Positions 28,678-58,781 of a DNA stretch of 64,000 bases are shown here, piece by piece (position 1 is the stretch's first letter; every line of letters begins with the position of its first letter). Below the pieces are notes generated by a model, which searched no databases, was not told the origin of the DNA, and saw only the letters and a program-made list of their open reading frames with translations. The translations under genes were made by a program, and so were the position numbers. The stretch comes from an uncultured Acidobacteriota bacterium (GTDB lineage: Bacteria > Acidobacteriota > UBA6911): assembly GCA_963843575.1 (NCBI GenBank), contig CAWJKZ010000014.1, forward strand, positions 288,001 through 352,000. The letters are read 5' to 3'.

Positions 28678-30138
28678 TCAGGTACGCGTGGACCCGCCGG
28701 TCAGGACGATGGTGTCCTGGTCCTGTGCGCAGGCGATCTCGAGAGTGTGCACGGCGTGGGCGAGCGCCGCCCGAACCTTTTCGTCGCGTTCCCTGGAGAA
28801 CCGATTCCTGAGGAGGTCCAGGACATCGATCGACGGGATGGCGGAGAGCGCCTTCGTCGCGGTCTGACGCACCACCGCCAGCGGGTGTGACAGGTAGGGG
28901 CGCAAGTGCGGCACGGCTCGGCCCTTTCCGGTCGAGGCCAGGGCGCTCAGGGCCATGGCGGCGGCATCAGGGTTGTGTGCGATGAAGTCCAGGATGGGTC
29001 CGAACGCTTCCGGGGCTCCGATTCTGCCGAGCGCCTCGACGGCGCACTCGCGGTGGTAGGGGCTCTGCAACTCACCGACGATCATGCTGACCGCAGAGAC
29101 GATCTTCAACTCGCCGAATACGCGGATCAGGCCCCAACGCACCCTGTCCTCCTCTCCTGTATAGAGCTTGAGGACAGCGTTCGCCTCGGCGGGCTGCATC
29201 TCGTTGACCATCTCTCGGACGACGGCTAGCCGCTCGCGTGTCGTGCCGGTCCGCAACAGTTCGAGCCAGCCCTCAATCCGGTCCGAGGAGGGGGTCCAAT
29301 CCTCCTCCCGGTTCGGGCATTGAGTCCTCGCATCAGCTCGTTCGCCTGCGTCGGTGTGGAGCCTGCGGGCCTCGGAGAGGAGCGATCCCGCATCGGCAAA
29401 TCGGGCGTGCGGCTCGAGCGCCAGGCACTTTTCGAGAAGGTTCCGCAGCCGTCCCGGCAGGCCTGCCCGGGTTTCGCCAGGCCACGGGAAATTGCCCAGC
29501 GGCGGGAAACCCATGAACATTTCGTAGAGGAGCGCGCCCAGCGAATAGACGTCCGCCCTCCGGTCTACGCGCTTCGTGCTGCAGCGCTGTTCGGGCGCCA
29601 GGTAGGCGATGGTGCCCATGACCTCGTTTGATTTCGTCAGCGCCGTCCCCTCCTCCGCGAGCGATTTCGCTATGCCGAAGTCAGCCACCGAAGGCTGCCC
29701 GGAGGCATCGAGGAGAATATTAGCCGGCTTCAAATCGCGGTGCACCACGCCGCGCTGGTGCGCATAAGTCATCCCGTCGCAGATGCCGGTGAACAGCGCC
29801 AGCGCCTCCGCAGGCGGGATTCGGCCACGGGCTATCTTCTTCGCAAGGTTTCCGCCTGGCATGTACTCCATGAAATAGTAATAGCAGTCTTCCAGGGCCC
29901 CGCTGTCGAGGATCTTTACTATCCGCGGATGGGAGAGCGCCGCGATGATCTCGACTTCCCGCAGGAACCGCGCATAAGCGGCGGGCGCCGCGGTGGCACG
30001 CCGTGCGAGGATCTTGACGGCACGCCTCTCGCGCGTCTTCGGGTCCAGCGCAAGATACACGTCGGCCATCCCGCCCGAACCGAGGTGTTGCGTGAGATAG
30101 TATCGGCCGATCTTGCGCCGAAGCATCGCCCGGCTCAC
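28678..30138 (-). CDS. Hanks-type Ser/Thr protein kinase with C-terminal HEAT repeats (cytoplasmic)
   Basis: GSGGMADV, AVKIL, HRDLKPAN, DFG, YLAPE intact; C-terminal HEAT-like helices (RECAVEALGRIG, VVRQTATKALS); no TM segment. Confidence 0.92.
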   Translation of the reverse strand: MSRAMLRRKIGRYYLTQHLGSGGMADVYLALDPKTRERRAVKILARRATAAPAAYARFLREVEIIAALSHPRIVKILDSGALEDCYYYFMEYMPGGNLAKKIARGRIPPAEALALFTGICDGMTYAHQRGVVHRDLKPANILLDASGQPSVADFGIAKSLAEEGTALTKSNEVMGTIAYLAPEQRCSTKRVDRRADVYSLGALLYEMFMGFPPLGNFPWPGETRAGLPGRLRNLLEKCLALEPHARFADAGSLLSEARRLHTDAGERADARTQCPNREEDWTPSSDRIEGWLELLRTGTTRERLAVVREMVNEMQPAEANAVLKLYTGEEDRVRWGLIRVFGELKIVSAVSMIVGELQSPYHRECAVEALGRIGAPEAFGPILDFIAHNPDAAAMALSALASTGKGRAVPHLRPYLSHPLAVVRQTATKALSAIPSIDVLDLLRNRFSRERDEKVRAALAHAVHTLEIACAQDQDTIVLTGGSTRT

Positions 30139-31121
30139 TGAGACGCCCTGCGATCCATCGATTCCCTCCAGAGTTCAACCCGATTCTTGCCCATGCCTTT
30201 GGCCCGATAGAGCGCCGCATCGGCGCCGTCGAGCAACAATTTCGGATCGCCGCCGCGCGCCGGATAGCAGGCCACGCCGAAGCTCGCCGTCACCGGGGAA
30301 ACCAGGTGCAGAGCCGGGCTGACCGACCGCTCCACCGCCTGCCGGATACGTTCGGCCAGGGCCGTCGCGCCGCGCGGGCCCGTTTCCGGCAACACCACGA
30401 TGAACTCCTCGCCCCCGAACCTCCCGGCGCGGTCCTGGCGGCGCAGGTTGCGCCGCAGCACCTCGGAAACCAGACGAAGCACCCGGTCTCCCATCAGGTG
30501 CCCGAGCGTGTCGTTCAAACCCTTGAAATTGTCGAGGTCGACGAGGAGCACCGACACGCGGCGGTGGTAGCGCTGCGCTTTGTCCAACTCTTCTCCCAGC
30601 AGGCGCGTGATGGTCATCTTGTTGAGCAGGCCCGTAAGCCCGTCCGTGGTGGCCATCCGGTAGACTTCGTCGTAGAAATTCCTGTCCGCGATGTCCCGGT
30701 GCTCGTACTTGAGGATCGTCTGGCCCAGGGTGATCTTGTCACCCGGCCGCAGCACGGCGCGTTGCACCCGCCGGTAGTTGACCAACGTGCCATTCGTGCT
30801 CCCGAGATCCTGGAGCACGATACGCACCGATTCCCCCCGGGCTGCCCTGACCAGTTTCCTACGGGTCAACAGGAAGTGCTTGCGCGAGACGGAGGGATCC
30901 GTCAGGACGATGTCGCACTCTTCCCCCCTGCCGAAAGAGACCTGTGGGCGCAGCAGGGGCAGTTCCTTCCCGAGCACGTTTCCGGAGAGAAACGTCAGGG
31001 TGGGGATTACGCCCGAGTGTTCGCGTGCGGCTCCGGCGCACGGCAGCGTTGACTCCCCGATCAGAACCGTTATGGGGTCGTCCTGTTCGACGGCACTCGT
31101 CGCGTATCTTCGTTTGCTCAT
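30135..31121 (-). CDS. FHA-domain diguanylate cyclase (FHA-GGDEF)
   Basis: FHA motifs FGR, SRKH, STNG; DGLTGL, DLDNFK, RxxD I-site (RRQD), GGEEF; ATG 31121 after AAGGAG. Confidence 0.92.
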   Translation of the reverse strand: MSKRRYATSAVEQDDPITVLIGESTLPCAGAAREHSGVIPTLTFLSGNVLGKELPLLRPQVSFGRGEECDIVLTDPSVSRKHFLLTRRKLVRAARGESVRIVLQDLGSTNGTLVNYRRVQRAVLRPGDKITLGQTILKYEHRDIADRNFYDEVYRMATTDGLTGLLNKMTITRLLGEELDKAQRYHRRVSVLLVDLDNFKGLNDTLGHLMGDRVLRLVSEVLRRNLRRQDRAGRFGGEEFIVVLPETGPRGATALAERIRQAVERSVSPALHLVSPVTASFGVACYPARGGDPKLLLDGADAALYRAKGMGKNRVELWRESMDRRASQ

Positions 31122-31134
31122 GGCACAGCTCCTT

Positions 31135-31902
31135 TTACGCCAGTACAGCCGTCTGGAAACGCGTCCGGTGCGCCACCAGGTGCGTCGCGCCGTTTGCGTC
31201 CCGGACGGCGGCCACGTCGTGCAAGTGCCAGACCCCGCCGCACCGACCTGCCGCCATCGTGAAGAGGAGCAGTCTCTCCGAAGCGACGAACCGCAGTCTC
31301 GCCACACCCTCGACGGGAACCCGCCGAAATACGGCCAGCAGTTCGCCCGAGTCCACAGGTACGCCCTTCAACACCTCGGCCTCGCGCAGATATCCTTCGC
31401 AATCCCTGAGCGTCAGCGCCTCGCGCGGAGCCGCCACCCGCATCTGCGGCATACGGACGATGCGCTCCGTGGCGTTGTGGACCGCGGGCGCCCGCGGAAA
31501 CGCCCATTCCGTCGACTGGTCCGGGCATCGGGCAATTTCCAGGAGGGTTGCACTTCGTACACTGGATCCACGGCGGCGGAGATCGACGCCGTCAACGCAC
31601 TCGCGCACGGTTGGCGTCGGCAGCGGCAGCGCTCCTTCGTGGCATGCCCCGGGCTGGAGCATCGCGATGGACGATACGGGGGTCGCCGCCGCCAGCTGCC
31701 GGGCGCGCCGCCCCGACTTCGAGTCCATCATGGCCTGCCGTAAGAAACCAAGACCGTCCAGAACACCCGCCACGTCGACAGGGCAGAACTGGCTGACCTT
31801 CACGCCAATCCTGACGTCCAACTCCAGCACGCGGAACGAAGCCGCCCGGCAGGCCAGCCACCGGCACCAGGAGCGGGTGGGCCCGGTCGCGTGCGAGTTC
31901 AA
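31135..31902 (-). CDS. Hypothetical protein
   Basis: Fills the gap in the operon; TTG start overlaps the upstream stop (TTGA) and its stop abuts the next RBS; C-terminal half looks globular. Confidence 0.5.
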   Translation of the reverse strand: MNSHATGPTRSWCRWLACRAASFRVLELDVRIGVKVSQFCPVDVAGVLDGLGFLRQAMMDSKSGRRARQLAAATPVSSIAMLQPGACHEGALPLPTPTVRECVDGVDLRRRGSSVRSATLLEIARCPDQSTEWAFPRAPAVHNATERIVRMPQMRVAAPREALTLRDCEGYLREAEVLKGVPVDSGELLAVFRRVPVEGVARLRFVASERLLLFTMAAGRCGGVWHLHDVAAVRDANGATHLVAHRTRFQTAVLA

Positions 31903-37792: not shown

Positions 37793-38354
37793 ATGATCAG
37801 ACTGGCTATCATCATTGGGAGCACCCGGCCGGGGCGCAAGGCCGACGTCGTGGCCCGGTGGGTCTATGAAATCGCGCGGCGGCGCAAGAGACGCCGAGTT
37901 TGAGCTGGTGGATATTCGGGATTACAACCTCCCGCTGCTCGACGAACCGGTCCCGCCGTCCATGGGACAGTACTCGCAGCCACACACCAAGACCTGGGCC
38001 GCCAAAATCGACTCCTTCGACGCCTTCGTGTTTGTGACGCCCGAGTACAACCACGGGACCTCCGGCGCCCTCAAGAACGCCATCGACTACCTCTACCGCG
38101 AGTGGAACAACAAGGCCGCCGGCTTCGTCGCCTATGGCAGCGCGGGCGGGGTCCGGGCCGTGGAGCAGTTGCGGCTGGTCATGGGCGAGCTGCAGGTGGC
38201 CGACGTGCGTGCTCAGGTCGCGCTCTCGCTCTTCAGCGATTTCGAGAATTTCACCACCTTCAAGCCCGCGGCGCGCCACGAGCGCTCCGTCGACACCATG
38301 CTGGATCAGGTCATCGCCTGGGGCGAGGTCTTGAAGACGCTGCGGAACAAGTGA
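37793..38354 (+). CDS. NADPH-dependent FMN reductase (frameshifted ~37885)
   Basis: IIGSTRPGR, TPEYN, LKNAIDY, EWNNK, GGVRAVEQLR. Confidence 0.88.
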
Positions 38355-38421
38355 CACGGCGGACCGATCGCCTGCAGACGCGACTTTCCCCGTTTCCGGA
38401 TGGAACGGACTGGAGAACCCG

Positions 38422-38595
38422 ATGACTGTCGTCCCGGCACTCTCCCAAACCCTCGTCGAATATGGCGCGCTTATGTCCGGGCTGGCGGCGATCCACACCA
38501 CCGTCGAAGGCTACGTCGGTCGGGGCCACCTGAAGTACGTCGTGATGGTCCTCCTTTGCCTCCTTGTCTTTATGTGGCTGCGGCAACGTCGCTAG
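38422..38595 (+). CDS. Small membrane protein (57 aa, below ORF-track cut-off)
   Basis: GGAG RBS; MTVVPALSQTLVEYGALMSG...KYVVMVLLCLLVFMWLRQRR, C-terminal TM plus basic tail. Confidence 0.6.
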   Translation: MTVVPALSQTLVEYGALMSGLAAIHTTVEGYVGRGHLKYVVMVLLCLLVFMWLRQRR

Positions 38596-38613
38596 GCGCA
38601 GGGCCGGGCCGGC

Positions 38614-41160
38614 TCATGCATTCCGGTCCGGCCCTGTCGTGGCTGCCTGGCGCACTATGGCTTGGCCCAGCCCCTCTATGGTTGGGTAATCGAAAAGCAG
38701 TCGCAGAGTCACATCGAGCCCGAATACCGCTCGTATCCGTGACAGCAACTGTGTCGCCATGAGCGAGTGCCCGCCGAGAGCAAAGAAATCGTCGAAGATG
38801 CCAACCTGCGGAATCGCGAAGACTTCGGACCAGATCAGCGCCAGCTGCTCTTCCACCTGGTTGCGCGGGGCTGCGTACGGGGTGTCCAGGACAGGCCGGA
38901 GCTCCTCCATGGCAGCCAACGCCCTGCGGTCCGTCTTGCCGTTGGAGGTCAAGGGCATCGATTCCAGTCGAACAAACCGCGACGGGAGCATGTATTCGGG
39001 GAGTGTGGCGCGCAGATGTCCGCGCAGGCCCGAAGGCGTTGGAACGGTTTGACCTTGGGCAACCCAGCAGGCGAGGAGCTGCTTGTCTCCCTGATCGTTC
39101 TCCTGCAAGACCACGGCACACCTGGACACCCCGGCATGCTCAGCCAGCCTGGTTTCGATCTCCTTGAGCTCGATCCGAAAACCCCGGACCTTCACCTGCG
39201 TATCCCGTCGCCCCAAGATCTCGAGATTCCCCCCGGGCAGCCAGCGTCCCCGATCCCCGGTCCGGAAGAGCCGCGCACCGGGGGGCCGGCCGAACACGTG
39301 CGGGATGAAACGCTCGGCTGTCTCGGCCGGGTCGTTCACATAGCCCTCGACCAATTCTCCCCCCAGGTATACCTCCCCCGGCACACCGATCGGCGACATC
39401 CGAAGCCTGGGATCGAGGACGAATACTTCCATCAAGGGGGTAGGCCGCCCAACGTCAACTATTGCCGGATCATCGTCCAATGGGGAGCAGACGCGGCCCG
39501 TGGCGCTCGGCGCCTCGCTGCAACCATAGGAAATGACCAGCTCGCACTGCTTCAGCCTCTCGAAGAAGCGCCTCTTCAATTCGGTCGATACAGTTTCTCC
39601 GATGCACTCGACGATTCGCAGTGAGGGGCACGATCTGAGTTCTCCGGAATTCAGGAACGCGGAGAGTTGGCTGGGAGTTGCGAGGAGGCACGAGATGCGA
39701 TGTTCATCGATGAACTCGGCGAGTTTCGCGGGATCGTACTCCAGGCCCTCCGGTGCAACAAAAAGGGTCCCCCCCGACATCAGCGGACGAAGTATTTCCG
39801 CATGCGTGAAGCCTGTGCCCGAGTCGGTCTTGAGCAGGTGGCGGTCGTCCGGCGACATCGGAGCGATTCCCGGTAGCTCGTAACCTATCCCCGGTCGATG
39901 ACGCCCTATACGCTTTCTCATGATCTTCGGGGCGCCGGTCGAGCCGGAGGTCGTCATCACCGAGGCCGTGTGACCCGGGGTGACGCGGTTGGCCGGCGCC
40001 GTGCTCTGTTGACTGGCCAGCTCCGCCGCAATTTCACTGAGGCAGAGGTTCGGCCACCTTGTTTGAGCAACCCTTTTGTCGAACGGATTCTCCGTGAGGA
40101 CAACCGCAGGCGAAACCACTTCAAGGGCCGCGCGCATGCGCTCTGCGGGCGTGCCGGCATCGAGCAGGAAAATAGCGCCGCCCGCCTTGATAACCCCGAG
40201 ATAGGCCATCACCAACTCCGGCGAGCGGCGCAGGAAAATGCCGACCGGGACGTCGGGGCCGACCCCCAGGCCCTGCAGGAAGCGGGCCATCCGGTTGGCA
40301 CCCGCATCCAACTCCGCATAGCTCAGCGCGCCGCCGGAGAACACCACGGCCGCCTTGTCGGGGTTCCGGCCGGCGTGTTCCTGGAAACGAAGGTGCTGCA
40401 GATCCGGCACTGCAGGCGCATCCGGCCCGAAACTCCATGCACGGAGGAGAGCCTCTTCTTCCGGCGTCGCCAGTTCCAGCTCCCCCAACGCGGAGGCGGG
40501 ATGGGCAGAGACGACGTCCATCAGCCGGCAGTAATGCCGCGCCATCGCCTGGATGAACCTCGGCTGATAACGCTGGGCATTGTAGAAGAAGCGGGCCCAC
40601 ACGGCACCGTCGGGAGTCTCGGTCACCCAGAGACTCAATTCGCCTGCGAGAGACATCCCAGGGGCGGCCCCGGATTCCGACGCCCGGAACCGTACGGGTA
40701 ACCTCTCTTCACCCTGCCACCGCAGGGCTGCGGGGATAAGGTCGACGGAGAGACCGCCTCGTAACCGGCCGAGGACGCAGGCCGAGCGCACCTCGCCAAC
40801 AAGCTGGAGGAAGCTCCGGTCGGCTGACAACGAGGTGCGGACGGGTAGGATGACCAGGGGCTCCCCATGCAGGTGCCAGGCCACAAGGATTTCGGAGGTT
40901 CCGGAGTAGCGGAACAGAAGCGCGTGAAAAGCAGCCAGACACAATTGCGCAAGGGCGCACTCCGCGGCCGCCGCCACCAGCCTCAACCTGCCGGCGAGAT
41001 CCGCACTGATCACCTCGTCCAACCAGGCGGGTTTCCCCGCGCAGCCTTGCGGTGTCTTTCGGTCCTGAGGCAGGGACTCCTGCGGCCAAACGCCTTCGAA
41101 TGCGGCCCGCCAAAAAGCCGCTGCCTCTGCCGAATCAGTGCTGTTCCCTGTCTCGCCCAC
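38614..41160 (-). CDS. NRPS module: truncated C (C-lobe only) - atypical A - T
   Basis: LSYAELD, TTSGSTGAPK, YGCSE, FRTGD, QVKVRGFRIE, SNGK, FFALGGHSL; no HHxxxDG. Confidence 0.9.
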   Translation of the reverse strand: MGETGNSTDSAEAAAFWRAAFEGVWPQESLPQDRKTPQGCAGKPAWLDEVISADLAGRLRLVAAAAECALAQLCLAAFHALLFRYSGTSEILVAWHLHGEPLVILPVRTSLSADRSFLQLVGEVRSACVLGRLRGGLSVDLIPAALRWQGEERLPVRFRASESGAAPGMSLAGELSLWVTETPDGAVWARFFYNAQRYQPRFIQAMARHYCRLMDVVSAHPASALGELELATPEEEALLRAWSFGPDAPAVPDLQHLRFQEHAGRNPDKAAVVFSGGALSYAELDAGANRMARFLQGLGVGPDVPVGIFLRRSPELVMAYLGVIKAGGAIFLLDAGTPAERMRAALEVVSPAVVLTENPFDKRVAQTRWPNLCLSEIAAELASQQSTAPANRVTPGHTASVMTTSGSTGAPKIMRKRIGRHRPGIGYELPGIAPMSPDDRHLLKTDSGTGFTHAEILRPLMSGGTLFVAPEGLEYDPAKLAEFIDEHRISCLLATPSQLSAFLNSGELRSCPSLRIVECIGETVSTELKRRFFERLKQCELVISYGCSEAPSATGRVCSPLDDDPAIVDVGRPTPLMEVFVLDPRLRMSPIGVPGEVYLGGELVEGYVNDPAETAERFIPHVFGRPPGARLFRTGDRGRWLPGGNLEILGRRDTQVKVRGFRIELKEIETRLAEHAGVSRCAVVLQENDQGDKQLLACWVAQGQTVPTPSGLRGHLRATLPEYMLPSRFVRLESMPLTSNGKTDRRALAAMEELRPVLDTPYAAPRNQVEEQLALIWSEVFAIPQVGIFDDFFALGGHSLMATQLLSRIRAVFGLDVTLRLLFDYPTIEGLGQAIVRQAATTGPDRNA

Positions 41161-41227
41161 GCAAGGTCTCCTCTGCGCTGCGCGCCGGTGGGTGCGGCAG
41201 ACTCCCCGGCCTCAGCGCGCTCGCCGT

Positions 41228-44200
41228 CTAGCCGGATGATCCCCCGAATCTGTTGCGGAAGAGCTGGATCCACTCCTCCGCAACGGTGTATTCCACGCTG
41301 TGCAGATCGGCAGCGTCAAATCCCAGGCGACCCAGCTGGAGGTAGTGCTCCACAGACTCGTCCGAGGTGACCAGGCCCAGAGTCGGATTGATCCCCTCAA
41401 ACCGCGCGGTCAAGAGACTGGACAAGACGCAGCCGGTGATCTGCCGCGGTTCGTGCCGCAGCAGTTTCCTCAGCGCGGCGGGGGGCAGCAGCGATTCCCT
41501 GACTCGAGGCAGGTGCCTCAAAAGAGGAATCGGTTGCGGGGACCGGAGAACCCCTCCGTCCGTGAAGAGGACGTCGTGTTCATCCTCCAGCCGGCGGACT
41601 GCTTCGGGGACGCAATAGCAGTGGGGCGCCGAATCATCCACGATCATGGTGCCCGGATTCAGCTGGTGGACATCCAAGACTTCTGCAACATTGGTTGCCC
41701 CTATGATGAGTGTCGAGTCGTAAAACTCCGACGGCACCCGAGGATGGGAAACAACGCTCCGCATCGTGCCCTGGAAACCTGACTTCCCGACAATACTCTC
41801 GGCCTGCTTTGTGTTGGCGCTTCCATACAGGTCGCACAGCGTGATCTGCTCCGGATGTGGGAGACAGCGCAGCATGAGTGCCAGCGTCGCGCTGCCGATG
41901 GAGCCCAGCCCGAGGAAGCCGACGCGCTCCCGCCGAAGGTTCCGGTCCGCGAGCCGTGCGATCTTCTGGATGCTGAGTACGACCGCGCTCACGGTCGTTG
42001 CGTGACCCGTGGTGATGGCCGGCAGGCTGTTTCCGTTCGGCGATACGGTCGCGATCGCCCGCCCATAGTCCGTCGCGGAGGGGATCAGTCCGGTAAGGGA
42101 CACGGCACGCGCTCCGATGCGGCCGGCAAGTTCCAGCGCTTCGCGGACTGTTTCGACAAGGTCGGTTGGGTTGTCGTAGAGCTCGGAAGCGAAGCGGGGC
42201 ACCAGGACGATGCCGATCCGGCCCAACGAGGTCTCCAGGACAGCGGCGATCCCCGGCAGGTTGTCGTACCACTGGTCGACGATCTCTTCCCGGCTCAGGC
42301 TCGCCAGCCAGTCGTCGGGTAGATACCCGATGGCGGCCGCCTCAACTGCCGGAATCTTACCGGCTGCAAATAGAGAAAGCAGCGGACGGCGTTCGATGGT
42401 CAGAAACGAGGTGGGATTGTCCCAAACTGGCCTATGGGTGGGAGCTTGAATGGGCGGGGCCTTGCAGTCCGGGGCACCGGGAGCGTCCGCGGCGTCACCG
42501 ACCGAGAGTACTTCCGCCAGAGACGCGATGGTGGGGTGCGAGAGCAACAGCCGCGCCGGAAGTTTCCGGTTCAGGGCGGCAGACATCTTGGCAACTAGCT
42601 GCATCATGAGCAGCGAGTGCCCTCCCAGGTCGAAGAAGCTGTCGTCGACGCTCACCTTCTCCAGATCGAGCACCTCCCGCCAGATCCCCGACAGCAGCTC
42701 TTCCATCGCCCCGCGCGGCGTGATGTGCGGCTCTTGCGTCTCCTGCCGGGCGGAAAGGGCCGCCAGGGCAGACCGGTTCACCTTGCCATTCGAGGTAAGC
42801 GGGATCCGGGCCAGAAATTCGAACGTCGATGGGACCATGTAACCGGGCAACCGGTCCTGCAGGTAGCGGCGGAGGTCGCTCTGGCATGGCGCCTGTCCCG
42901 GTTGAGGGACCACGCACGCCACGAGACGTCTGTCTCCGGATTTGTGTTCCCGATCCACAACGACGGCGTCACGCAGCCGTGGGTGTTGCCGCAACAGCGC
43001 ATCGATCTCTCCCAGTTCGATGCGGAATCCGCGGATCTTCACCTGCTGGTCCCGACGGCCCAGGAATTCAATTGCCCCATCCGGCAGGTATCGTCCGAGG
43101 TCCCCGGTCCGGTACATCCTGGCGCCCACGGAGTCGGTGAAGGGATCGCAGACGAATCGCTCCGCTGTAAGTTCGGGCCGGTGGAGGTAGCCGCGAGTGA
43201 TCCCGGAACCCCCGATGTAGATCTCGCCCGGCACCCCGGTGGGCGCCGGCTGCATTTGCCCGTCGAGGATGTAAAGCCGTGTGTTGCTTATTGGTCGGCC
43301 TATCGTCTGTGCTCCCCCGGGGGTCCGCAGTGCGCAACTCGAATACGTCGTTGCCTCTGTCGGACCGTAGAGGTCGAAGACCCGCTCCGCGTGCGTCTCG
43401 TGGTAGAGCCGTCGCGCCACGGATTGCGACAGCACCTCGCCCCCGGAATTGATCGTCCGGACCGAAGAGGGCACCGCACCGACGTCGAGCAGATAGGCCA
43501 GCGCAGACGGGACCAGGTTTACCAGGGTGACGTCGTTCGCCGCCGGCAGCCACGGCAGCGACATGGCGTTCTCGGCAAGGATCGCCTTGCCTCCGCAACT
43601 CAGCGGAACGAAGATTTCAAAAACCGAGAGATCGAAGCAGATTGAGGTGGACGCGAGCACCCCCGCGAGTTCGGACGCGGAGAAGAATCGCTGTGCCCAC
43701 GTAATGAAAGCCACCGAGTTCCTGTGCTCGACGGCGACCCCCTTGGGTCTGCCCGTCGAGCCGGAAGTGTACAGGACATAGGCCAGGTTCCGTGCCGACA
43801 GCGGCCAGCCGGGATTCAGGCCGCTGCACACCCGGATGGCGTCGGCATCGGCGTCCAGGCAAACCAGCCGGGCAGTCAATTGCGGCAGAATCGGCGACAG
43901 CGTCTGCCTGCTCACCACGACCCTGGCGTTGGTGTCCCTCAACATGAAACTAAGCCGGTCCTGGGGATACGACGGATCCAGGGGCACGTACGCAGCCCCC
44001 GCCTTCAGGACCCCCAGCAACGCCACCACCATGTCGAACGAACGGTCCATGCAGACTGGCACCAGTTCGTCCGGTCCGACCGCCAGTTCCCGGAGGTGAT
44101 GCGCCAGACGGTTCGCGCGTTCGTTAAGCTCGCCGTAGGTCAGCCGGCGGTCCTCCAAGACCAGGGCATCCGCCTCGGGCGTCCGTTGCACCTGCGCCTC

Positions 44201-47200
44201 GAACAGCTGATGAACGCAGCAGTCCTGAGGGTATTCCGCCTTCGTGTCGTTCCATTCGACCAGCAGCCGAAGCCGTTCGTCCTCGGAAAGCAGCGGGAGT
44301 TCCATCACGCGCCGGGAGGAATCGGCCGCAATCCCTTCCAACAGCGGCGTCCAATGCCCAAGCATCCGCCGGATGGTTGCGGACCGGAAAATGTCCGTGT
44401 TGTATTCGATGGAAGTCTTCGCCGCTTCCTCCCCGGCAACCACGGAAAACGTCAGATCGAATTTCGCGGTGGGGTTGTCCGGCTCCAGCGTGCGGGTGTC
44501 GAGTCCTTCCAGACGGAGCGTTGCAGGCCCCTGCTGCAGCGCGAACATGACCTGAAAGACCGGCGCACGGCTCGGGTCCCTTTTCGGGTGGAGTTCCTGC
44601 ACCAGCCTCTCGAAAGGCAAGTCCTGGTGCGTGTAGGCCCCCAGCGTCGTCTCGCGCACGCGCCCGAGCAGGTCACGAAACGTGGGGTTCCCCGACAAAT
44701 CGGTTCTCAGCGCGAGGGTGTTGACGAAACACCCGATCAGTGTCTCCAGTTCGAGCCGATTTCGCCCCGCAATCGGCGAACCGACGACGACGTCTTCCTG
44801 CCCTGAATAGCGCAGCATCAGCACCTTGAAGGCGGCCAGCAAGGTCATGAACAGCGTTGTTCCTTCCCGCCGGCCAAGCTGCTCCAGCCCAACGACGAGT
44901 TCCTGGGCGAGCGGCGCGCATTCCCGGGCTCCGTGCTGGGTCTGCACGGCCGGGCGCGGGAAGTCCGACGGCAGTTCCAGCACGGCCGGAGCGTCCCTGA
45001 GCCGCTGTGTCCAGTACTCCAGGTGCCGGCCCAACCGCGCACCCTGCAGGCAGGACTGCTGCCAGACCGTGTAATCGGCATATTGCACTGCCAGTTCCGG
45101 CAACGGCGATCCCTCGCCGCGCCGGAACGCGCCGTAGAGCGCGGCCAGCTCGTCGAATAGAATCCCCATCGACCAACCGTCGGCCGCGATGTGGTGAACC
45201 GTGACGGCCAGCACATGCTCGCGGTCGGCGAGGCGGATCAGCGCCGAGCGCAGCATCAGGTCGCGCGACAAGTCAAAGGGGCGTTGACCGACTTCGGCCA
45301 GGACGGTTTGCAGTTCGATTTCCCGGGCGGCTGGCGGGAGCGTGCTCAGCTCGATCAATGGCAGGGTCACAGGCCTCGCGGGCGATATCTGCTGCACCGG
45401 GCTGGGGGTCATCACGAAACGAGTGCGCAACGCCTCGTGTCGGCGGACAACTTCGTCCAGCGAGCGCTGCAAGCTCGGTATGTCCAACAAGCCGGTGAGC
45501 CGTGCGGCATAGGGTATGTTGTAGGTCGAACTGTTGCGTTCCAACTGGTCCAGAAACCACAACCGCTGCTGCGCGTACGAGAGTGGGAGTTCTGCCCGCC
45601 GAGACGCCGTCTTTATCTGCGGGTCCGGAACCACATCCCCTGGCGCCTCGGATTCGATGTGCCTCGCAAGGTCGGCGATGGTCGGGGACTCGAGGAAGGC
45701 GCGCATCGGAACCTCTACGCCAAGCGCCTTGCGAATCCGGGAGATCACCCGGGTCGCCCGCAGGGAATGCCCTCCGGAATCGAAGAAGCTGTCGTGGATC
45801 CCTACGTGTCCAATCCCCAAGACCTCGCGCCAGATCCCGGCCAGCAGTTCCTCGAGCGCCGTTTGCGCCGGGGTATGAGTCTTGTCGGCTGCCGGCGCCT
45901 GCACCGCGAAGGACCGCAGGGCTCGGGAATCCACCTTTCCGTTCGACGTCAGCGGTATGCGTGTCAACCACACGAAGGAGGCCGGCAGCATGTAAGCCGG
46001 AAGTCTTTCTTGCAGCCAACGGAGGATTTCTTCCGCGGAGACGCTCCCCGGATGGTGCGCCACCACGTAGGCCACGAGGGTCTTTTCGTCGGATCCGGCG
46101 TCGTCGGCCATGACGACGGCATCCCGCAGTCCCGGGTGCCGGCGGAGAATCGATTCGATCTCGCCCGGCTCGACCCGGAATCCGCGAATCTTCACCTGCC
46201 CGTCCAGCCTTCCCAGGAAAGTGAGGGTTCCGTCGGGGAGACGCCGCACCAGGTCGCCGGTCCGGTAGAGCCGCGCCCCGGGTTCCGCGCTGAAGGGGTT
46301 CGGGAGGAATTTCTCCGCCGTCAATCCCGGCCTTTTCCAGTAGCCTCTGGCCAGACCGTCACCCGCGACAAACAACTCGCCGGCGACGCCGACGGGCACG
46401 GGTTGAAGCTCGCCATCCAGCACGAAAGCCTGGGTGTTTGCTATTGGCCGGCCGATCGGGACCGACGGGCCCACCTCGTCCGGGTTGCGCAGCGCATGAC
46501 AGCAGCTGAAGGTCGTGTTCTCCGTCGGCCCATAACCGTTGATCAGCGTGCACCTGCTCAGAGCCCGCAGCGCCTTGCGCACGTGCGCGGCCGGCAGCAC
46601 GTCCCCACCCACCAGAAGCTGCCGGACCCCTCGAAGGTGGTCCGTATGGCAGTCCACGATCTCGCGGAAAAGTCCGGCCGTCAGCCACAGGACAGTGACC
46701 TCGTGCTGCTGCAGCGCCCGACCCAGATCGGCAAAAGCCGGCAGACCCGGTGGGGCAACCACCAGCCTGCCCCCGTTCAGGAGGCAGCCCCAGATTTCAA
46801 ACGTGGCGGCATCGAAGAAAATCGGGGCGAGTTGCAGGAATACGTCGTCCGGGTGAAAATGGACATAGTCGGTCCCCTTCACCAGGCGCACGACACCCCT
46901 GTGGGGAACACTCACGCCCTTTGCTGTCCCGGTCGAGCCCGACGTGTACATCACATAGGCGAGGTGCTCCGGCCTGGTGGTGTTCTGAGGATTTTCCCGA
47001 TATTCCTGTTCTATGAAGTCCGACAGGGAGTCTATGAGGATCACGGTCCTCCGTGCCTCCCGGCAGGGCCCCGAGAGTCGGGGAGTGCGCCAGCAAAACT
47101 TGCACGCCGCAGTCCTGCAGCATGAATTCCAGCCGTTCCTTCGGGCTGGCGGGATCGAGCGGTAGGTAGGCACCGCCTGCCTTCAGGATACCGAGCATTC

Positions 47201-48800
47201 CCACCAGCATCTCCACCGAGCGCTCCGCGCACAGCCCGACCAGCGTGTCCGGGCGCACGCCCAATCTGCGCAGATAACGAGCCAACTGGTTGGCCCGCGC
47301 GTTCAACTCCGCGTATGTCACGGTACTGCCCGAAAACACGACCGCGGCGGCATCAGGGGTGCGCATGGCCTGCTCTTCGAAGACCTGATGCACGCACCGG
47401 TCGCGTGGGTACTCACGCTTGGTGTCGTTCCAACGAGCCGCAGCGCGCGCACGTTCGGCGTCGCTCAGCAAGGACAGCCGTGCCAGGGGCCGGTTCAAAT
47501 CACCGGCCATTTCGGCGTGCAGGGTGCGGAGGTGCGCGACCATTCCGGCAATGAAACCGCGTTCGTACAGGCGGTCGTCAAAATCGACCGCCAACAGGAT
47601 TTCGTCGTCGTCGTACCCGGTGATGACCAGAGGATAGTTGGTCCGGGCCCGCAACTGGAACGTGCGATGCGGCCACTGCCCTCCTCGTTTTCGGAGCTGG
47701 GAGTTGATCTCGTAGCTTTCGAATGAGAGCAGGCTGTCGAAGAGGGAAACGCCGGCCTGGATGCCTCTCCAGCCCTGGATAGCGCTCAAGGGCACGTGCT
47801 CGTGCGGCCGCATTGCTGTCCACTGAGCCCTCAATCCCTGCAGCCAAGGGAGAATCCGGGCCTCGGGATCGACATCGACCGGCATCGGGAGGGTGTTGAT
47901 CAGAAGCCCCACGGCCTGCTCGGCCGACCCCGGTCCGGAATGCCGGCCGGAACGGGTCGCTCCGAAGACAACCTTCCTTTGGCCGCTGTAGCGGCTCAAC
48001 AGAATGGCCCAGGCACCCTGAAAAAGCGTGTTCAGGGTGAGACCGTGCTCGGCCGCCACCGAGCGGAGTCGCGAGCTGAGCGATCTCGAAAGGCGAGTGC
48101 TTTCCTGCGCGGCCGCTTGCATACGCACGGAGCACGAATATCGGTGCAAGACACCGGTCGCCGGCAACCCCGTCTTTTCATACCCCGCAAGTAGTCCGCG
48201 CCAGAACGCGGCCGACCGGTCTATGTCCTGCGCACGCAGCCACTCCAGATGTACCCCGAAGGGTACGGCGTCAGGGAGCGGGGCGCACCGCCCGGCGCAC
48301 AGTGCGTCATAAATCGTGAAGAGTTCCTGCAGCAGAATCAGTCGCGAGCGCCCGTCCAGCAATGCGTGGTGGGACGTCCAGATCAGTTGATGGTGGTCTT
48401 CGGCGAGAGACAACAGCGTGAGGCGAAAGAGCGGCGCCGTGGCAAGTTCAAAGCCGAGGCGGCGGTCTACCTCGAGAAACGCCTCTAGCTCGGATTCCTG
48501 CTCGGTGGAGGAACGGTCGTACCAGTCCCGTGATTCCCAGGGGATCGCGACCGTTGGGTGCACGATCTGAAGCGGGATGTCCAAGTTTTCCCAGGCGAAG
48601 CTGGTCCGCAGAACACAATGCCGCTCGGTCAACTGCGACCACGCGCGCTTGAGCGCGGGCACGGAGAGCGTCTCGCGCAGATCGCAGATGAACTGCTGGA
48701 GGTAAATCCCTTGTTGCGGAGCCGCCAGGGTGTGGAAGAGCATTCCCTGTTGCATGGCGGTAAGCGGATAGGCGTTCCGCGGTTTGTCTTCGTGCTCCAT
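41228..48800 (-). CDS. NRPS C-A(Val)-T-C-A(Ala)-T-reductase-like (AAR/COG5322), split by one frameshift ~47050
   Basis: HHALLDG, YTSGSTG (x2), GGHSL (x2), HHIAADG; terminal SLTGLIP/ITTGH/GLGSIG/DDSAP/GC domain; two overlapping ORFs join inside A1. Confidence 0.9.
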
Positions 48801-49179
48801 CGACCGACCTCGAGACGGAAAACGATACTCGGTCGCCGCCGCCGTGAAGCGGACGCAAAACCGTCTTAGGCTTCCCTCCAAACCCGCTGGGGATCATCTA
48901 TCGTATCGAGGGAAATGGCCGTCGACATTATTCTTATCCGGGCACTCCCCTTCCCTCCCGTCGGGGAGACGGGACGCCTCGGATGGGCCATTGCAGCTGG
49001 CGGGGCGGTTGGCGGGATCCGGGGCTGACATCAAATGCGGACGCGATTCACGCCTGACGCACGTGTGCGCCAGGCCATCTCCCCCGGCCCGCTGAATATC
49101 GATGCGACCGCGAACTCCACAGTGCACGGTCCTGGGCGTCGGGGGCGAGTCGAACCCGCCCCCGACGGTGTTTTTTCAG

Positions 49180-52100
49180 CTAGGGCGACGTGAACAGCCA
49201 CGCCCCGGCGATCTGCCAGTTCAGATCCTCGATCTTCATGATCCATTCGCCGCTGCCGCGGACGGTGCCGTTCATGAGCCAGACGTAGTTCTCACCCGTC
49301 GCAGAGTTCCGCCAGAGGATGTCCGGCTTCCCGTCGCAGTTGAAATCCGCAACCCCGCCGATCTTCCAATTCAGGTCTGGAACCTTCAGGAGCCAGGCGC
49401 CTCCGGTCCGGTTCGGCCCGTTCATGAACCACACGTAGTCTTCTCCGGTTGAGGAGTTTCGCCACACCAGGTCCGGGAGATTGTCCGCGTTGAAATCTCC
49501 CACTCCCACGACCTTCCAGTTCAGGTCGGGCAGGGACTGGACCCACGCTCCTCCGACCCGCGCCGTACCGTTCATGAACCAGATGTAATTCTCACCCGTG
49601 GAGGAATGCCGCCACAGGATGTCCGCCTTCCCGTCCCCGCTGAAGTCGGCCACGCCTGCGATCTTCCAGTTCAGGTCCGCTACCTTGAGGATCCACGCAC
49701 CGTTGATGCGCTTTTCCCCGTCCATGAACCAGACATAGTTGTCCCCCGTCGCGGAGTTGCGCCACAGGATGTCCGTCCTGCCATCGGCGTTGAAATCCGC
49801 GGCCCCTCCGATCTTCCAGTTCTGGTCCGCTATCGTCAGGACCCAGGCACCGTCTCGCCGCGTGCTTCCGTCCATCAGCCAAAGGTAGTTCTGGCCGGTG
49901 GCTTGGTTGCGCCACAAGATGCGTGCTTCGCATTGATAGAGGCAGATCAGCTTTCCGAATTTCGCCACGAACGCGTCCGTCATCCCGTTGTAGGTGATGT
50001 CGTAGGCGCTCGGTACGGTATACCCCTGGGGTGGGACCGGCAGTACGGGGAACATTTTGTACGTTTGTGGCGGCTGGGTCCGAACCGGGCTGACCCCCAC
50101 GGTGCCGGACAAGGTCATGCCCGAGAGATAAACGTTGTTGTGGACGTTGTCCAGGGCGATGGCGAAGGCGCTGTCGAGCTTGTCCGGGACATACTCGGGC
50201 AGGGAGCTTGCAGAGGTGTCGCTCTTCTCGAGACCGACGAAGGTGGAGAAGAACAGGTCGGCGAGGTCGTCCGAAAACATCGACAGGATGGCGTCCGTCG
50301 CCCCGTTATAGGTTCGGTCCGGGGCCCCGGGCGTCGTGGGAAAGGCCAGCGGGTCCGCGGGGAGGCGCGAGGATGAACTCTCCCCCGCCACGTAGACATT
50401 CCCGCACCAGTCGAGATCGATCGACCATGCCGCCTCGTATCCGTCTCCGCCCAGATACGTAGAGGCTGGAAGTGTCTTGAGGTCCGGCGCGAATTTGGCC
50501 ACAAATGCATCCTGGTTCATATTTCCCGCGAGTCCGGTCTGAAAAGCGCCCGGAGTCGTCGGGAAATCTGACGACATGGTGTATCCACTGACGTACACGT
50601 AGCCGGCATTGGAGACTGAGAGGCCCCAGGCCGCTTCATCGAACGTTCCCCCCAGGAAGGTCGAGGCGACGAGGCTGGTGAGGCCGGCGTTAAACCGCGA
50701 AACGAAAGCGTCGCCTTCCCCGTTCGTCGTGCCGCCGTTGAAGTCCGTGTCGTACGCGTAGGCCGTGGTCGGAAAATCGCCGGGATTGGCCGGCCTGGTC
50801 TCGCCCGCCACATACACGAGGTCGGTGTACTCATTGCTGACCATGGTCCTCTTGACGAAGATGGCCCGGGCCCTGTGGCGGCCCCCGAATCCCAGATAGG
50901 TCGAAGCGAGCAGCTTGGTCAGGCCGCCGTCGAGCTTCGACACGAAGGCCGAGTCCGAGTTCACCGCGCTCGAAGCGAAGGCGGCGCCGGGCGTGGTCGG
51001 AAAGCCATACCCATCGAACCACCCGGCGACATACACATCGGCCTGCGGCGTGACGTGTATGGAGCAAGCTTCGTCGTGGGAGTCGCCGCCGAGCAGGGTG
51101 GATGCGACCAGCTGCTTCAGGTCGGAGTCGAACTTCACGACGAAGGCGTCGTGCAGGAAGTACTCGTGCAATTCCACGCCGGGGGGGATGTCGCTGGCCA
51201 GAATCCGGTCATAAGCCCCCGAAGTGGTCGGGAAATCCTCGGACCCCGTGATGCCGGTCGCATAAACGAAATCCTGGCCGGTCGTCGAATCGTGATAGAG
51301 AAACAGGTCGTTGATGTAATCGACTCCGGTGCCGCCGAGCAGCGTGGAGCCAAGGAGTTGCGTGAGATCGCTGGTGAACTTGGAGACGAAGGCGTCCGGC
51401 CTGGAGTTGCCCGCGTAGCTTGAATCGTAGGCGCCCAACGTCTTGGGGAAGTTCGTCGAGTACGTGTAGCCGGCTACGTAGACCAGGCCTTTACCGTCGA
51501 CGCCGACGGTGTATGCCGCCTCGTCGTCACTCCCCCCAAGGAAGGTCGCGGCCAGCAGCGGATCGATGACCAGCTCCGCGCCGCGATCATATTTCCCCAC
51601 CCGGAACCCATAACGGTCCCCGTCGACGACGTACGCGACTTCGAGGTCGCGGCGGACGCCGTCGATAACCTGGTAGGCGACGGGTTGTGTAAACCTGACC
51701 GCCCCGAGCCCGGTCTGGATCTCCAGCTCACCGTCTTTGTTGCTGCCGAGGCCGCTGGCCCCGTCGATTCTGACCCGGACAAGCCCGGGATCCCCGCCCG
51801 GCTGGACGCGGAAGATCTTCTCCACGGTGCCGCCACGCGCCCGCAAGTCCAACTGGATGCCTTGGTACAGCTCGCCGAACGAGACGACGTTGTAGGTCGG
51901 TATGTCTCTCCTCCATTGCGACGGAGCCGTGTGCCGGAAGTAATTCACCCGGGCGCGGGTCTGCTCTTCACCGCGGAGGCCTACCGGGAGAGATCCCACA
52001 AAGGTCTCCTTCAATGCCCAGCCCTGGAATCCGTCGCCGCGCTTTGACAGGAAGCGCGAACGGTTCCCGGTGTGGACCGGTGCCGCGGTCTTGTCCGCCG

Positions 52101-55127: not shown

Positions 55128-58100
55128 CTAGTACAGGATCTTCAGCGAAAACTGAATCTGTCTTGATGTGCCGGCGGTCCGGAAGACCTGGCCGAATCCG
55201 GGACCGGACACGATGTTCGCCGGCAATCCGAAATTCACCAGGTTGAAGATGTTGAAGAACTCGGCGCGGAACTGAAGCACCGCCCGCTCCGGGTTGCTCC
55301 CGAGGGCGATCGGCGTATTTTTGATGACCGAGAGATCGAAGTTGCGGAAACCCGGCCCGCGAAAGGTATTCCGGCCGATCGAGCCGAAACGTCCCTGGTT
55401 CGGTCCGGTACCTCCTGGAACCCCTATCGGGATGGAGAAAAAGCTCGCGTTATTCGTGCCGCGCCCGAAATAATCCTCTCTCACGGTCCGGCCGGTGGAC
55501 AATTCCGGCGTGCCGACCTGGTCGGGCCTGTCGGCCCCGTTTGTACCCTGACCCGTCTGCTGGATCCCCGAATAGACCGTGAACGGTGATCCCGTGGTGA
55601 ACGATCCCATTCCCAGAACCTGCCAGCCGTCCACGAAGCGCCGGCCGAGGCCTCGCAGCAGAGGAGTTCTCCTGAACGACAGCTCCTGGATCAGGCTGAA
55701 CGACGACGCGTGCGTCACGTCGAACGTCGACGGCCCTTTTTCGGCCTTCAGATTGTGGAGATCCTGCGGTGTCGTCTGCAGCACGGCCCCGGATGCCCCC
55801 GAGAACAACCCGCCCAGCACGGCGCTGGTATCGTCCAGGGACCTGGAAAATGTATAGCTGCCCTGGAAACCAAGGCCCGCGCGCAGCGAGGTTTTCGCCA
55901 CCGATACCTGCAGCGAGTGATAGGTCGAGTGCGAGCCGTTCGTTATGATGATGGCAGGACCGTATCCCCAGGTCACCTGCCCGGCGGAATCAAATTGCGT
56001 ATAGCGCGCTCGTGTCCGGCATCTGCCCCGCCGTATGCGTTCGGGAACTCCATCCTTTCCAGCCTCACCCCGACCGTGGCGACATACGCGGCGGAGAGTG
56101 TCACGTCGCGCAGACTCCGTTCCACGCCCAGCGTATAGCTTCCGACGTAGCCGTTCACGAGGTTCTGAGCCATCCCCTGGGCCGCGATGGGGCGGACCTG
56201 CTTGTCGGGACTCAGCGCCGCGAGTTCTCGTTCAAAGCGCTGTACATCCATCTCGGTGTTCGCCGGCACATCAGTCGAACGACCCGATGCGAAGACGTTC
56301 CTGCCGTCGGGGGTGAAGACATCCGGCACCTGGATCGATTGCACCGACGTGCGGAAAGGGACCGGCGCTCCCGGGACAGCGGCCTCATACAGCGCCACGG
56401 TAAACGGCAGCCCGGCGGTGACGCAGTTGGTCTGCCACAGGTTGGGCAGTAGCGGCGTAATCGCGCCACCGGCGCGTACGACCGTCTGCTTGTCGACCTG
56501 CCAGTCGAACGACAATCGCGGGCTCCAGCCCTTCCAGTCCATTCCGTATGGCGGCTGTGGGTTGATCAAAAAACGCGTAGAGGCCAGCGTATCCCCGAAG
56601 AATATGCCGGACGTCATGTGCTTCGGCTCCGCGATGCGGGTGTTGACCTCATACCGCAGACCGTAGCTCAAGGCAAATCTGGGCACAACCGTCCAGGTAT
56701 CGCTGAAAAAGGCGTTGTACGCCTGCCGGCGCACTCCGACATTGCCCATGCGGGATCCCTGGGGGAAGATCGAAGGCGCGGCGGTGGTCGCGAACGAAAA
56801 TGGAGTCGCCGTAAGGAAGCCGCTGAGCGCATCGGGCAAAGCGTCGCCGGTGTGGATGTCGTGCGTCCCGCTGCGTGAACGAATTTCCACCGGCGAGTAG
56901 GCGGCGCCGCCCCCGAATGTGTACAACCCGCTCGGATTGATGCCGTATATGGTTACGTCGACATTGAATCGCCCCTCAAAGCCCGCCTGCCATTTGTGCC
57001 TGCCCTTGTCCCAGCTGAGATTCTGGCGCACCTGGATGAGATTCCCGTAGGCGCCCAGGACGGTGCCTGCCGTGAGATTGAAAGGCTCGTAAAGCCCGTC
57101 GCCGAATGAATACCCCGGTTCCGTGTGGTTTTGCGCCTGGAAATTGGGCGTGGAACGCACGAACCCAAGGTAGCTCTCCGAGGTGAAGAACGGCGAGGGA
57201 GTGTAAGTGGCGGAAAGTCCTCCCGCCCGCTGCCGGTCGAAGAAGCGCACGGCAAACGACGGGTCGATCGCCGCCTGGGAAGGGTTGGTCAGCGGCCCGT
57301 CGACATTGTTGAGATTGAAGCGCGCAAACAGCTGCAGCCGCGCCGATGAGCTGTGGTCCAACCTGACGGAGAACTGATCGCTGACGGTGCGCACCTTCGA
57401 GGAGATGGCATAGGTCCGCTCGCCAAACGGGCCCAGGGGATCGTTCGGCATTGGGTACCGGGCGAGCACCGGCAGGATCTTGTCGTTCACCGGCACTTGG
57501 AGAGCGTCTCCGGAATAGGCGGTCGTATCGACGCCGCGCCGTTCGTCGGCCGTTGGAACGGAGAGCATCTGGGTGGTGCCGAGCACCTGCCGGAATCCCT
57601 GGTACTGAAGGAAATAAAATGTCCGGCTGCGTCCGTCGTAGAGGCTCGGGATCAACACGGGACCGCCGTTGGTGAAACCGAATTCATTGCGGTTGAACGG
57701 CGGAATCCGCCCCGGCTGTGCGACGGAGCTGCGATCGAAAAAATTGCGCGCATCGAACGCCGCATTCCGCACGAATTCGAACAGGCTGCCGTGAACGTCG
57801 TTCGTGCCCGACTTGGTAATCACTTCGGTGAATCCGGCCGCGCCGTGCCCAATATCGGCGGTCAGGACGCCCGTGCTCGATTTGATCTCCTCGATGGCGT
57901 CCACGTTGAAGTTCGAAAAAGTGGCGCCGCCCATCTGCGGGTCGGTGGTGTCGGTCCCATCCATGGCGAAGACGGTGGCCGATCCCCGCTGACCGTTGAC
58001 GGTGAACTGCTGCGTGAAATTGGCGGCGCCGTTGGTATCCGTCTGGGTCCCGGCGGCCAGGAGCAGAAGCTGGCTGAAATCCCTCTTGTTCAAGGGAAGG

Positions 58101-58549: not shown

Positions 58550-58781
58550 ATTACCGCCTGTGGTTCGGCTGATCAGTGAAATGGATCGCTTCATCCACTC
58601 AAACGGCCAAGCCTGCCAGAACTGATGATGAGATCTCGCTCGGGGCAGGAAGCACCACACGCATCCGCCATGGTGCCCATCGATTCGGGGCCGAATTATA
58701 CAGGCTCGCCCACCGATAGCGGCACATGAAGGTCACCGAATCTTCGCTTCCTGCAGATGTTTGTGAATGTACTGCCTCGGT

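Follow-up and report, generated by a model that had tools for sequence, protein, structure and literature searches.

A two-gene peptide synthetase with a TAD-family terminal domain and a conserved, truncated partner module in an uncultured Acidobacteriota bacterium

The locus described here encodes a small nonribosomal peptide synthetase (NRPS) and lies in a stretch of 64,000 nucleotides (the window) from an uncultured Acidobacteriota bacterium of the UBA6911 lineage (GenBank assembly GCA_963843575.1, contig CAWJKZ010000014.1, positions 288,001 to 352,000 of the forward strand). Three minus-strand open reading frames (ORFs) of the window carry NRPS domains. ORF 46797-48881 (P0001) encodes a condensation (C) domain, after which an adenylation (A) domain begins and runs for ~110 residues; ORF 41228-47173 (P0002) encodes the rest of this A domain (A1), then carrier (T), C, A and T domains and ~420 further residues; ORF 38614-41160 (P0003) is the downstream gene, referred to as gene 2, and encodes half a C domain, an A domain (denoted A*) and a third carrier, T3. 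Joined across one frame change, the first two ORFs form a single large gene whose product has the order C1-A1-T1-C2-A2-T2-TAD, the last being a domain of the TAD family. The likely start of the large gene is the ATG at 48800 (MEHEDKPRNAYPL), which is aligned with the first residues of the homologue P0006, and gene 2 follows after a gap of 67 bp. Three GGHSL carrier motifs are present, two in the large gene and one in gene 2. The ORFs, the Pfam domains and these motifs together bear out the two-gene, three-carrier architecture proposed in a sequence-only reading that preceded this analysis. Outside the truncated C domain of gene 2 and the frame change in A1 the NRPS catalytic motifs are intact. 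Coordinates are collected in Table 1.

Table 1. Features of the two NRPS genes (positions are those of the window).
Feature	Position	Strand	Basis
Large NRPS gene, C1-A1-T1-C2-A2-T2-TAD	41228..48800	-	ORFs and Pfam, via one frame change
C1 condensation domain, DCL-like, HHALLDG	47448..48776	-	Pfam Condensation, P0001 residues 36-478
A1 adenylation domain, code DAFWLGGTFK (Val)	45935..47381	-	Pfam AMP-binding and AMP-binding_C, motif anchors
Frame change inside A1 (+1 or -2 bases)	47035..47060	-	ORF overlap, P0006 alignment
T1 carrier domain, GGHSL	45656..45847	-	Pfam PP-binding, P0002 residues 443-506
C2 condensation domain, LCL-like, LPLSYAQQRLWFL and HHIAADG	44264..45595	-	Pfam Condensation, P0002 residues 527-970
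A2 adenylation domain, code DLFNNGLTYK (Ala-like)	42758..44203	-	Pfam, McyA alignment
T2 carrier domain, GGHSL at P0002 residue 1517, approximate bounds	42506..42697	-	second PP-binding stretch
TAD-family domain, putative terminal amidation, acyl-ACP-reductase-like fold	41240..42415	-	phmmer against PDB sequences
Codon of the invariant Cys (ITGCVLSSLL)	41429..41431	-	counterpart of CarI Cys2238 by motif correspondence (NIMGCAFSALL in 9e4s)
Gene 2 (downstream gene), half C domain, A* and T3, 848 residues	38614..41160	-	Pfam, homologues of the same shape
C-terminal subdomain of condensation domain, no HHxxxDG	40411..41160	-	Pfam, alignment
A* adenylation domain, Gly at 235, by-eye code GFALEISSAK	38935..40386	-	Pfam, FscH 6ea3 alignment
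T3 carrier domain, GGHSL	38656..38847	-	Pfam PP-binding, P0003 residues 772-835

The terminal domain sits directly after T2 and a linker, at the C-terminus of the large protein. The last ~400 residues have no Pfam match at E ≤ 0.01, PF07993 (NAD_binding_4) being absent; at E ≤ 10 the last 422 residues (P0004) give only a chance-level match to Sacchrp_dh_NADP (E 0.23). The same 422 residues, run by phmmer against PDB sequences, match 9e4s and 9e4u at E 9e-115 and 9e4x, 9e50 and 9e56 at E 1.9e-114. In the match to the CarI TAD (9e4s), query residues 28-419 are paired with chain residues 20-415, spanning both the N- and the C-terminal parts of the domain, and the two TADs are 47% identical. The 9e4s and 9e4x chains agree in every residue (100% identity across 394 residues) with the TAD region found in Moorena producens 3L (locus L011 of the genome collection described below), the organism of CarI. 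The motifs ITTGH and ITLCD are the same here as in 9e4s, GLGSIG corresponds to GLGSVG and ITGC to IMGC. The nicotinamide loop reads DDSAP in place of DDSGP, and the same Ala is found in several other TADs of a 20-sequence alignment; in that alignment the Cys of ITGC falls in an invariant column, C356 (20/20 sequences). A terminal reductase (R domain) of the short-chain dehydrogenase/reductase (SDR) type was considered and rejected, given the TAD match at E 9e-115 and the lack of a PF07993 match; SDR-type R domains likewise close the last module and have a nucleotide site of the Rossmann type, but belong to a different family. On homology, the large protein is clearly to be placed in the TAD-terminated NRPS class and not in the R-domain peptide-aldehyde class. 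The peptide-aldehyde product that had been predicted for this locus is not supported, since the terminal domain is of the TAD family and the products linked to TADs are primary amides.

TADs are bipartite, macrodomain-like at the N-terminus and Rossmann-type at the C-terminus, and their fold is like that of the cyanobacterial acyl-ACP (acyl carrier protein) reductase (AAR); the CarI TAD binds NAD(H), not NADP(H), and its invariant Cys lies beside the nicotinamide (10.1101/2024.10.28.620694). CarI, VatR and HcaD each end in a TAD, and their pathways give primary amides, namely the carmabins, vatiamides E-F and hectoramide B (10.1101/2024.10.28.620694; PMC10949194). The TAD of HcaD is described as a putative ammonolysis/offloading domain (PMC10949194). 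As in the window, the CarI/VatR/HcaD modules (PDB 9e4s, 9e4u, 9e4x, 9e50, 9e56) carry a domain of ~400 residues right after the last carrier, with the motifs kept; the Moorena TAD pathways are without an extra A*-T gene, whereas the window has one after the TAD gene. The AAR has the same two-domain fold, the same position of the catalytic Cys and the same first step, transfer of the thioester to Cys, as the TAD (10.1101/2024.10.28.620694). It differs in using NADPH, in being free-standing and in releasing an aldehyde, whereas the TAD of the window is fused to its NRPS and has the NAD-type Asp; it is not among the three PDB matches of the window TAD at E ≤ 10. Another route to a terminal amide, the MtaG-type glycine extension of myxothiazol, ties an extra NRPS module to amide formation (10.1101/2024.10.28.620694), as may be the case here, but it depends on a monooxygenase domain together with an A domain specific for Gly, and the window pair has neither. 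The preprint is the only study of the TAD domain itself that we found in the literature searched, and there we found no later proof of function. Because all product-linked TAD pathways give amides, and because the NAD-type features are kept, unlike in the NADPH-using reductase, we rank amide release above aldehyde release; a C-terminal primary amide is by homology the more likely product of the domain.

Gene 2 had been taken for a plain A-T module. It does contain an A and a T domain, but it also has half a C domain and a Gly in place of Asp235, and in these respects differs from that description. Its first ~250 residues correspond to the C-terminal portion of a C domain (residues 6-99 match positions 187-280 of 456 of the Pfam Condensation family). 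By comparison with the full C-A-T proteins of loci L001 and L014, ~190 N-terminal residues are missing and the protein starts past the place of the HHxxxDG motif; no HHxxxDG is found anywhere in gene 2. In the alignment of A* with FscH (6ea3), the Gly stands opposite Asp235 of FDVSVWE, the residue that binds the α-amino group. The P-loop, the A10 Lys (NGKTDR) and the Ser of T3 are intact, and the segments LLKTDSGTGFTHAEI and SYGCSEAPSAT are conserved across the gene-2 family. We know of no code that matches GFALEISSAK. A domains without Asp235 typically take 2-oxo, 2-hydroxy or aryl acids. Since the Asp that holds the α-amino group is missing, A* most likely activates something other than an ordinary α-amino acid, for example a 2-oxo, 2-hydroxy or aryl acid. 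Gene 2 thus fits neither a canonical α-amino-acid A domain (Asp235 is missing) nor a complete elongation module (there is no full C domain).

The unusual shape of gene 2 is not confined to the window. It belongs to a conserved family with five homologues of the same shape: P0257 (802 residues, 60% identity), P0258 (677 residues, 63%), P0259 (794 residues, 54%), P0260 (837 residues, 49%) and P0261 (574 residues, partial). P0003, P0260 and P0261 share their start point, ~ten residues before a (Y/F)W motif. Identity within the family is 42-51% for the half C domain, 35-57% for the carrier and 52-66% for the A domain. To judge by its identity of 42-51% against 35-57% for T, the half C domain is maintained and not drifting.

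The specificity codes of A1 and A2 were read via motif anchors (FDxS, the xxPS segment, xGGE, NxYGPTE and the A10 Lys) and agree with the earlier by-eye reading, that is DAFWLGGTFK, a Val-type code, for A1 and DLFNNGLTYK, one residue from the Ala code, for A2. DAFWLGGTFK is tabulated as the Val code of MlcM (PMC9113097). An ungapped alignment of the A2 pocket with McyA (PDB 8jbr, residues 650-763) scores 133 bits, the next match 40 bits. McyA has DLFNNALTY at the code positions, and 8/9 of the pocket residues read are identical to those of A2; A2 has Gly at position 301 where the A domain of McyA module 2 has Ala. For the whole domain the best match is LgrA (674.7 bits, summed over two A-domain stretches), followed by McyA (537 bits). 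We take the A domain of McyA module 2 to be Ala-loading. The likely substrate of A2, judged from this pocket, is Ala; Gly or Ser would also be possible because Gly301 slightly enlarges the pocket.

C1 begins YPLTAMQQGMLFH and has its HHALLDG motif at residue 171 of P0001. The domain scan agrees with the previous description of C1 as intact and lacking a donor domain on its own protein. Its top PDB matches are McyB (8hlk residues 13-464, 303 bits), PvdL (residues 560-1006, 252 bits), bacitracin synthase 3 (BacC, 224 bits), TycB (191 bits) and SrfA-C (183 bits). The C domains of these proteins, as we take it, accept a D-configured or acyl donor from the carrier of a separate protein or from a preceding loading didomain. 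Together these PDB matches and donor types would fit a DCL-like C1 that may be fed by a carrier-bound donor in trans. T3 is the only other carrier in the window besides T1 and T2. C2 is taken to be LCL-like from its motifs.

A1 is interrupted by a frame change, which had been noticed near 47050 and which the overlap of the two ORFs and the alignment with P0006 place at ~47035-47060. ORFs 46797-48881 and 41228-47173 overlap in different frames, and A1 runs on across ~47040-47060; the translation is ..LLAHSPTLGALPGGTED.. (..LPGGTED.) in the upstream frame and ..VILIDSLSDFIEQE.. (..VILIDSLSDF.) in the downstream one. As the alignment with P0006 stays collinear here, the window sequence has either gained one base or lost two. 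Two further genes of the window are similarly affected. The D-Ala-D-Ala ligase gene (ddl, 21090-22120, minus strand) is split, its N-terminal segment lying in another frame upstream of ORF 21090-21887 (near 21887-22100). A gene for a TonB-dependent-receptor-like outer-membrane protein (CarboxypepD_reg, Plug, OMP_b-brl_4; 55128-58660, minus strand) consists of two ORFs that meet at 55973, and its Pfam profile positions 1-571 and 595-838 continue from one ORF to the other. Because three frame changes occur in 64 kb, one of them in the normally essential ddl, the interruption of A1 probably stems from an error in the assembly and is not a sign of gene decay.

The domain family was followed in a genome collection. 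A scan with the single TAD protein as query gave 211 pattern matches, none of which was confirmed; with the 20-TAD alignment the scan gave 473 confirmed relatives, from which 80 loci were kept, and all locus counts below refer to these 80. The family is large (883 cluster representatives at E ≤ 0.001, 470 at E ≤ 1e-30) and, among the matches listed, nearly all TADs are found at the C-terminus of longer, NRPS-sized proteins. Of 76 loci that could be evaluated, 69 have the T-TAD order. A quick maximum-likelihood tree was built from 83 TADs, omitting L063 for its short match; in it the window TAD groups with P0006 and P0125 (SH-aLRT 100), and this group lies outside a mostly cyanobacterial clade of 45 rows that contains CarI (SH-aLRT 98). 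P0006, the closest homologue of the large NRPS, is a single-module C-A-T-TAD protein; its first 583 residues are 61% identical to C1 and the start of A1 in the window and its TAD is 70% identical. P0006 and P0258, a gene-2 homologue, are both listed with a longest contig of 178345 bp, and this shared figure suggests that the pair of large NRPS and gene 2 recurs elsewhere.

An A-T-like match is found downstream of the TAD in 9/80 loci. Seven of the 80 (L001, L006, L014, L043, L054, L075, L080) have an A* module without Asp235 after the TAD, directly after the TAD gene in six and with one gene between in L054, and in the TAD tree all seven fall on the same side as the window. At position 235 these modules have Thr or Ala, and they have in common the motif YG(T/A)TEAP(S/G)AT; when the 37 pocket matches obtained from all A domains of the 80 loci are ranked, these modules take the first five places and seven of the first nine. 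The downstream matches of L007 and L012 are 6-7 kb away, with a canonical A pocket in L007 and no pocket match in L012. The modules differ in form: C-A*-T in L001, L014 and L054, C-A*-T-TE in L006, where TE is a thioesterase domain, and A*-T without a C domain in L043 and L075; the match in L080 begins at the A domain. The C domains of the A* modules of L001 and L014 start with LCL-type motifs. A neighbourhood search in the preprint reports no gene that consistently co-occurs near TADs (10.1101/2024.10.28.620694). The available part of the preprint's text describes neither a carrier module without Asp235 after the TAD gene in a non-cyanobacterial subset nor a half-C variant of such a module.

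Several TAD loci have domain arrangements of their own. In L001 (7397-11212) and just upstream of 10001 in L075 and L080 a TE is fused directly before the TAD (A-T-TE-TAD), and in L005, L016 and L040 a TE directly follows the TAD; the TAD is therefore not simply a replacement for the TE in these loci. L014 (3-6093, Terriglobia) has tandem TADs, one at the end of the upstream protein and one in a free-standing ORF of 472 residues, followed by the C-A*-T gene. On a Gemmatimonadota chromosome (L006, 49-15191) the order is C-A-T, C-A-T, C-A-T-TAD, then C-A*-T-TE; it is difficult to reconcile a TE-bearing module after the TAD module with a TAD that acts only at the end of the line. In Crocosphaera chwakensis (L025, 11269-12954) a gene for a glutamine-dependent NAD synthetase (CN_hydrolase and NAD_synthase) comes directly after the TAD gene, and NAD synthetase genes beside TADs have been remarked upon for a few clusters (10.1101/2024.10.28.620694). 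Many cyanobacterial C-A-T-TAD proteins (P0042, P0048, P0055 and others, from Microcoleus, Nostoc, Laspinema and Dolichospermum) have an N-terminal PilZ domain (PF07238), which hints at control of these NRPSs by cyclic di-GMP (c-di-GMP).

As had been stated before, the window contains no recognizable phosphopantetheinyl transferase (PPTase), MbtH or TE: the Pfam Thioesterase, PPTase and MbtH families have no match among the 41 ORFs and ORF pieces scanned, and the MbtH core motif is absent from all six frames. A promoter and terminator scan of 38200-49300 found 1 promoter and 11 terminators against 1.4 and 7.4 expected from shuffled sequence, which is near expectation and uninformative. The FMN reductase gene, which is convergent with gene 2, and the S51 peptidase gene were rejected as cluster members, having no counterpart in any of the TAD loci. 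DUF6159, the HEAT protein and three small ORFs were dropped for lack of a homologue in these loci. The FG-GAP protein, with a match in L044 only, and the isocitrate/isopropylmalate dehydrogenase, with matches in L032 and L045, were also dropped. Elsewhere in the window (28678-31307, minus strand) a gene for a Ser/Thr protein kinase carrying HEAT repeats adjoins one for an FHA-GGDEF diguanylate cyclase; the two are possibly a phospho-dependent c-di-GMP signalling pair. The CTP synthase encoded at 59156-60769 has its best named relatives in Kiritimatiellota/Kiritimatiellia (79-82%), with Verrucomicrobiota next; although the assembly is assigned to Acidobacteriota, this search by itself would point to a PVC-group host, and few NRPS products have been described from that group.

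What is seen directly at the locus and in its relatives, namely the domain identities, the motifs and codes, the conservation of the truncated gene 2 and the recurrent place of related modules after TAD genes, can be assembled into a pathway that we put forward, tentatively, as the best reading. The A*-T3 module of gene 2 would load a starter X, most likely not an ordinary α-amino acid. C1 would condense X with Val held as the thioester of T1, and C2 would join X-Val to Ala on T2. The chain would then pass to the Cys of the TAD and leave as the C-terminal primary amide X-Val-Ala-NH2. A role of the gene-2 module as the loader of C1 is plausible. In this scheme we infer the module order, the identity of X and the release of an amide instead of an aldehyde from the predicted domains and their homologues. 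Several observations weigh against it. In vitro, the TAD failed to release its substrate whether NAD(H), metals, ammonia or each of the 20 amino acids was supplied, and its fold is that of the aldehyde-forming acyl-ACP reductase (10.1101/2024.10.28.620694). The TAD of the window lies outside CarI's mostly cyanobacterial clade, at 47% identity, and its link to amides is by homology. The code of A2 departs from the Ala code at position 301. Moreover, the relatives of gene 2 in L001, L014, L054 and L006 have a full C domain and are located after the TAD gene, which suggests that the ancestral role of the A* module was downstream of the TAD and not that of a loader.

This last point leads to a different assignment of A*-T3, which we consider rather unlikely: the module would serve the TAD, providing a co-substrate or an acceptor at release, while C1 would take its first acyl group from primary metabolism, as acyl-CoA or acyl-ACP, so that the product would be an N-acyl-Val-Ala compound. 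It would account for the Asp235-less module found after the TAD in seven of the 80 loci, directly after it in six, for the close kinship of the seven modules (the five best and seven of the nine best of the 37 pocket matches) and for their restriction to the window's side of the TAD tree. The upstream lines vary, with one module in P0006, two in the window and three or more in L006, L043 and L075, and the adjacency of TAD and A* is constant; the partner found in L043 and L075 consists of A*-T and lacks a C domain altogether. The second-best PDB match of C1 is the C1 domain of PvdL, which we take to accept a fatty acyl donor. The best match, however, is the C1 domain of McyB and not a classical lipo-initiation C domain. 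On the window's side of the tree some 27 loci can be evaluated, and ~20 of these are without the module; we also know of no chemistry for such a partnership. The cyanobacterial TAD pathways with known amides lack such a partner, and the preprint, as far as its available text goes, reports no consistent neighbour (10.1101/2024.10.28.620694). A broader proposal along the same line, likewise unlikely, is that in lineages outside the cyanobacteria a TAD and an Asp235-less A*-T work together as a conserved chain-release unit of two parts, in which the carrier would offer a tethered nitrogen donor or acceptor to the TAD Cys-thioester. If true, this would explain why the isolated TAD is inactive with free ammonia or free amino acids, and a P0006-type C-A-T-TAD protein with an A*-T, or the window pair, would be a minimal system for reconstitution.

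Two other outcomes differ from X-Val-Ala-NH2 in what is finally released, if anything is. Reduction of the thioester by the terminal domain to the peptide aldehyde X-Val-Ala-CHO is improbable in our view. Such a reaction would be in keeping with the fold and catalytic Cys position that the TAD shares with the aldehyde-releasing cyanobacterial AAR, and a route via an aldehyde intermediate is among those listed by the authors of the preprint (10.1101/2024.10.28.620694); for TADs beyond the Moorena group, and the window TAD lies outside that clade, there is no known product. It is at odds with the assignment of the terminal domain to a family other than the SDR-type R domains, with the amides produced in 3/3 product-linked TAD pathways and with the failure of the sequence search to find the AAR at E ≤ 10. 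Also kept are the Asp that selects NAD(H) over NADP(H) and the Asp on the nicotinamide side, the latter having been argued to favour NAD+ (10.1101/2024.10.28.620694). Least probable, we think, is that the cluster is decaying and makes nothing, the frame change inside A1 and the loss of the catalytic half of the C domain in gene 2 being real lesions. Although these two defects, and the lack of a PPTase, MbtH, TE or dedicated exporter among the genes of the window, would be expected of such a cluster, the two additional frameshifted genes, including the normally essential ddl, point to assembly indels; the catalytic motifs of the other domains are all intact, and the truncated gene 2 is kept in five homologues (49-63% identity).

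For the route by which TADs lead to C-terminal primary amides in NRPS and polyketide synthase lines, the one study found offers a structure, with neither an activity nor a nitrogen source. With its conserved partner gene, the TAD system of the window is very small, and the chemistry of the TAD could be tested in it within ~10 kb. Such a system could tell whether a TAD from outside the cyanobacteria gives an amide or an aldehyde, what substrate A* takes, and whether the partner acts at the start or at the end of the line. For genome mining, it means that a Rossmann-type domain after the last carrier is not by default an aldehyde-forming reductase.

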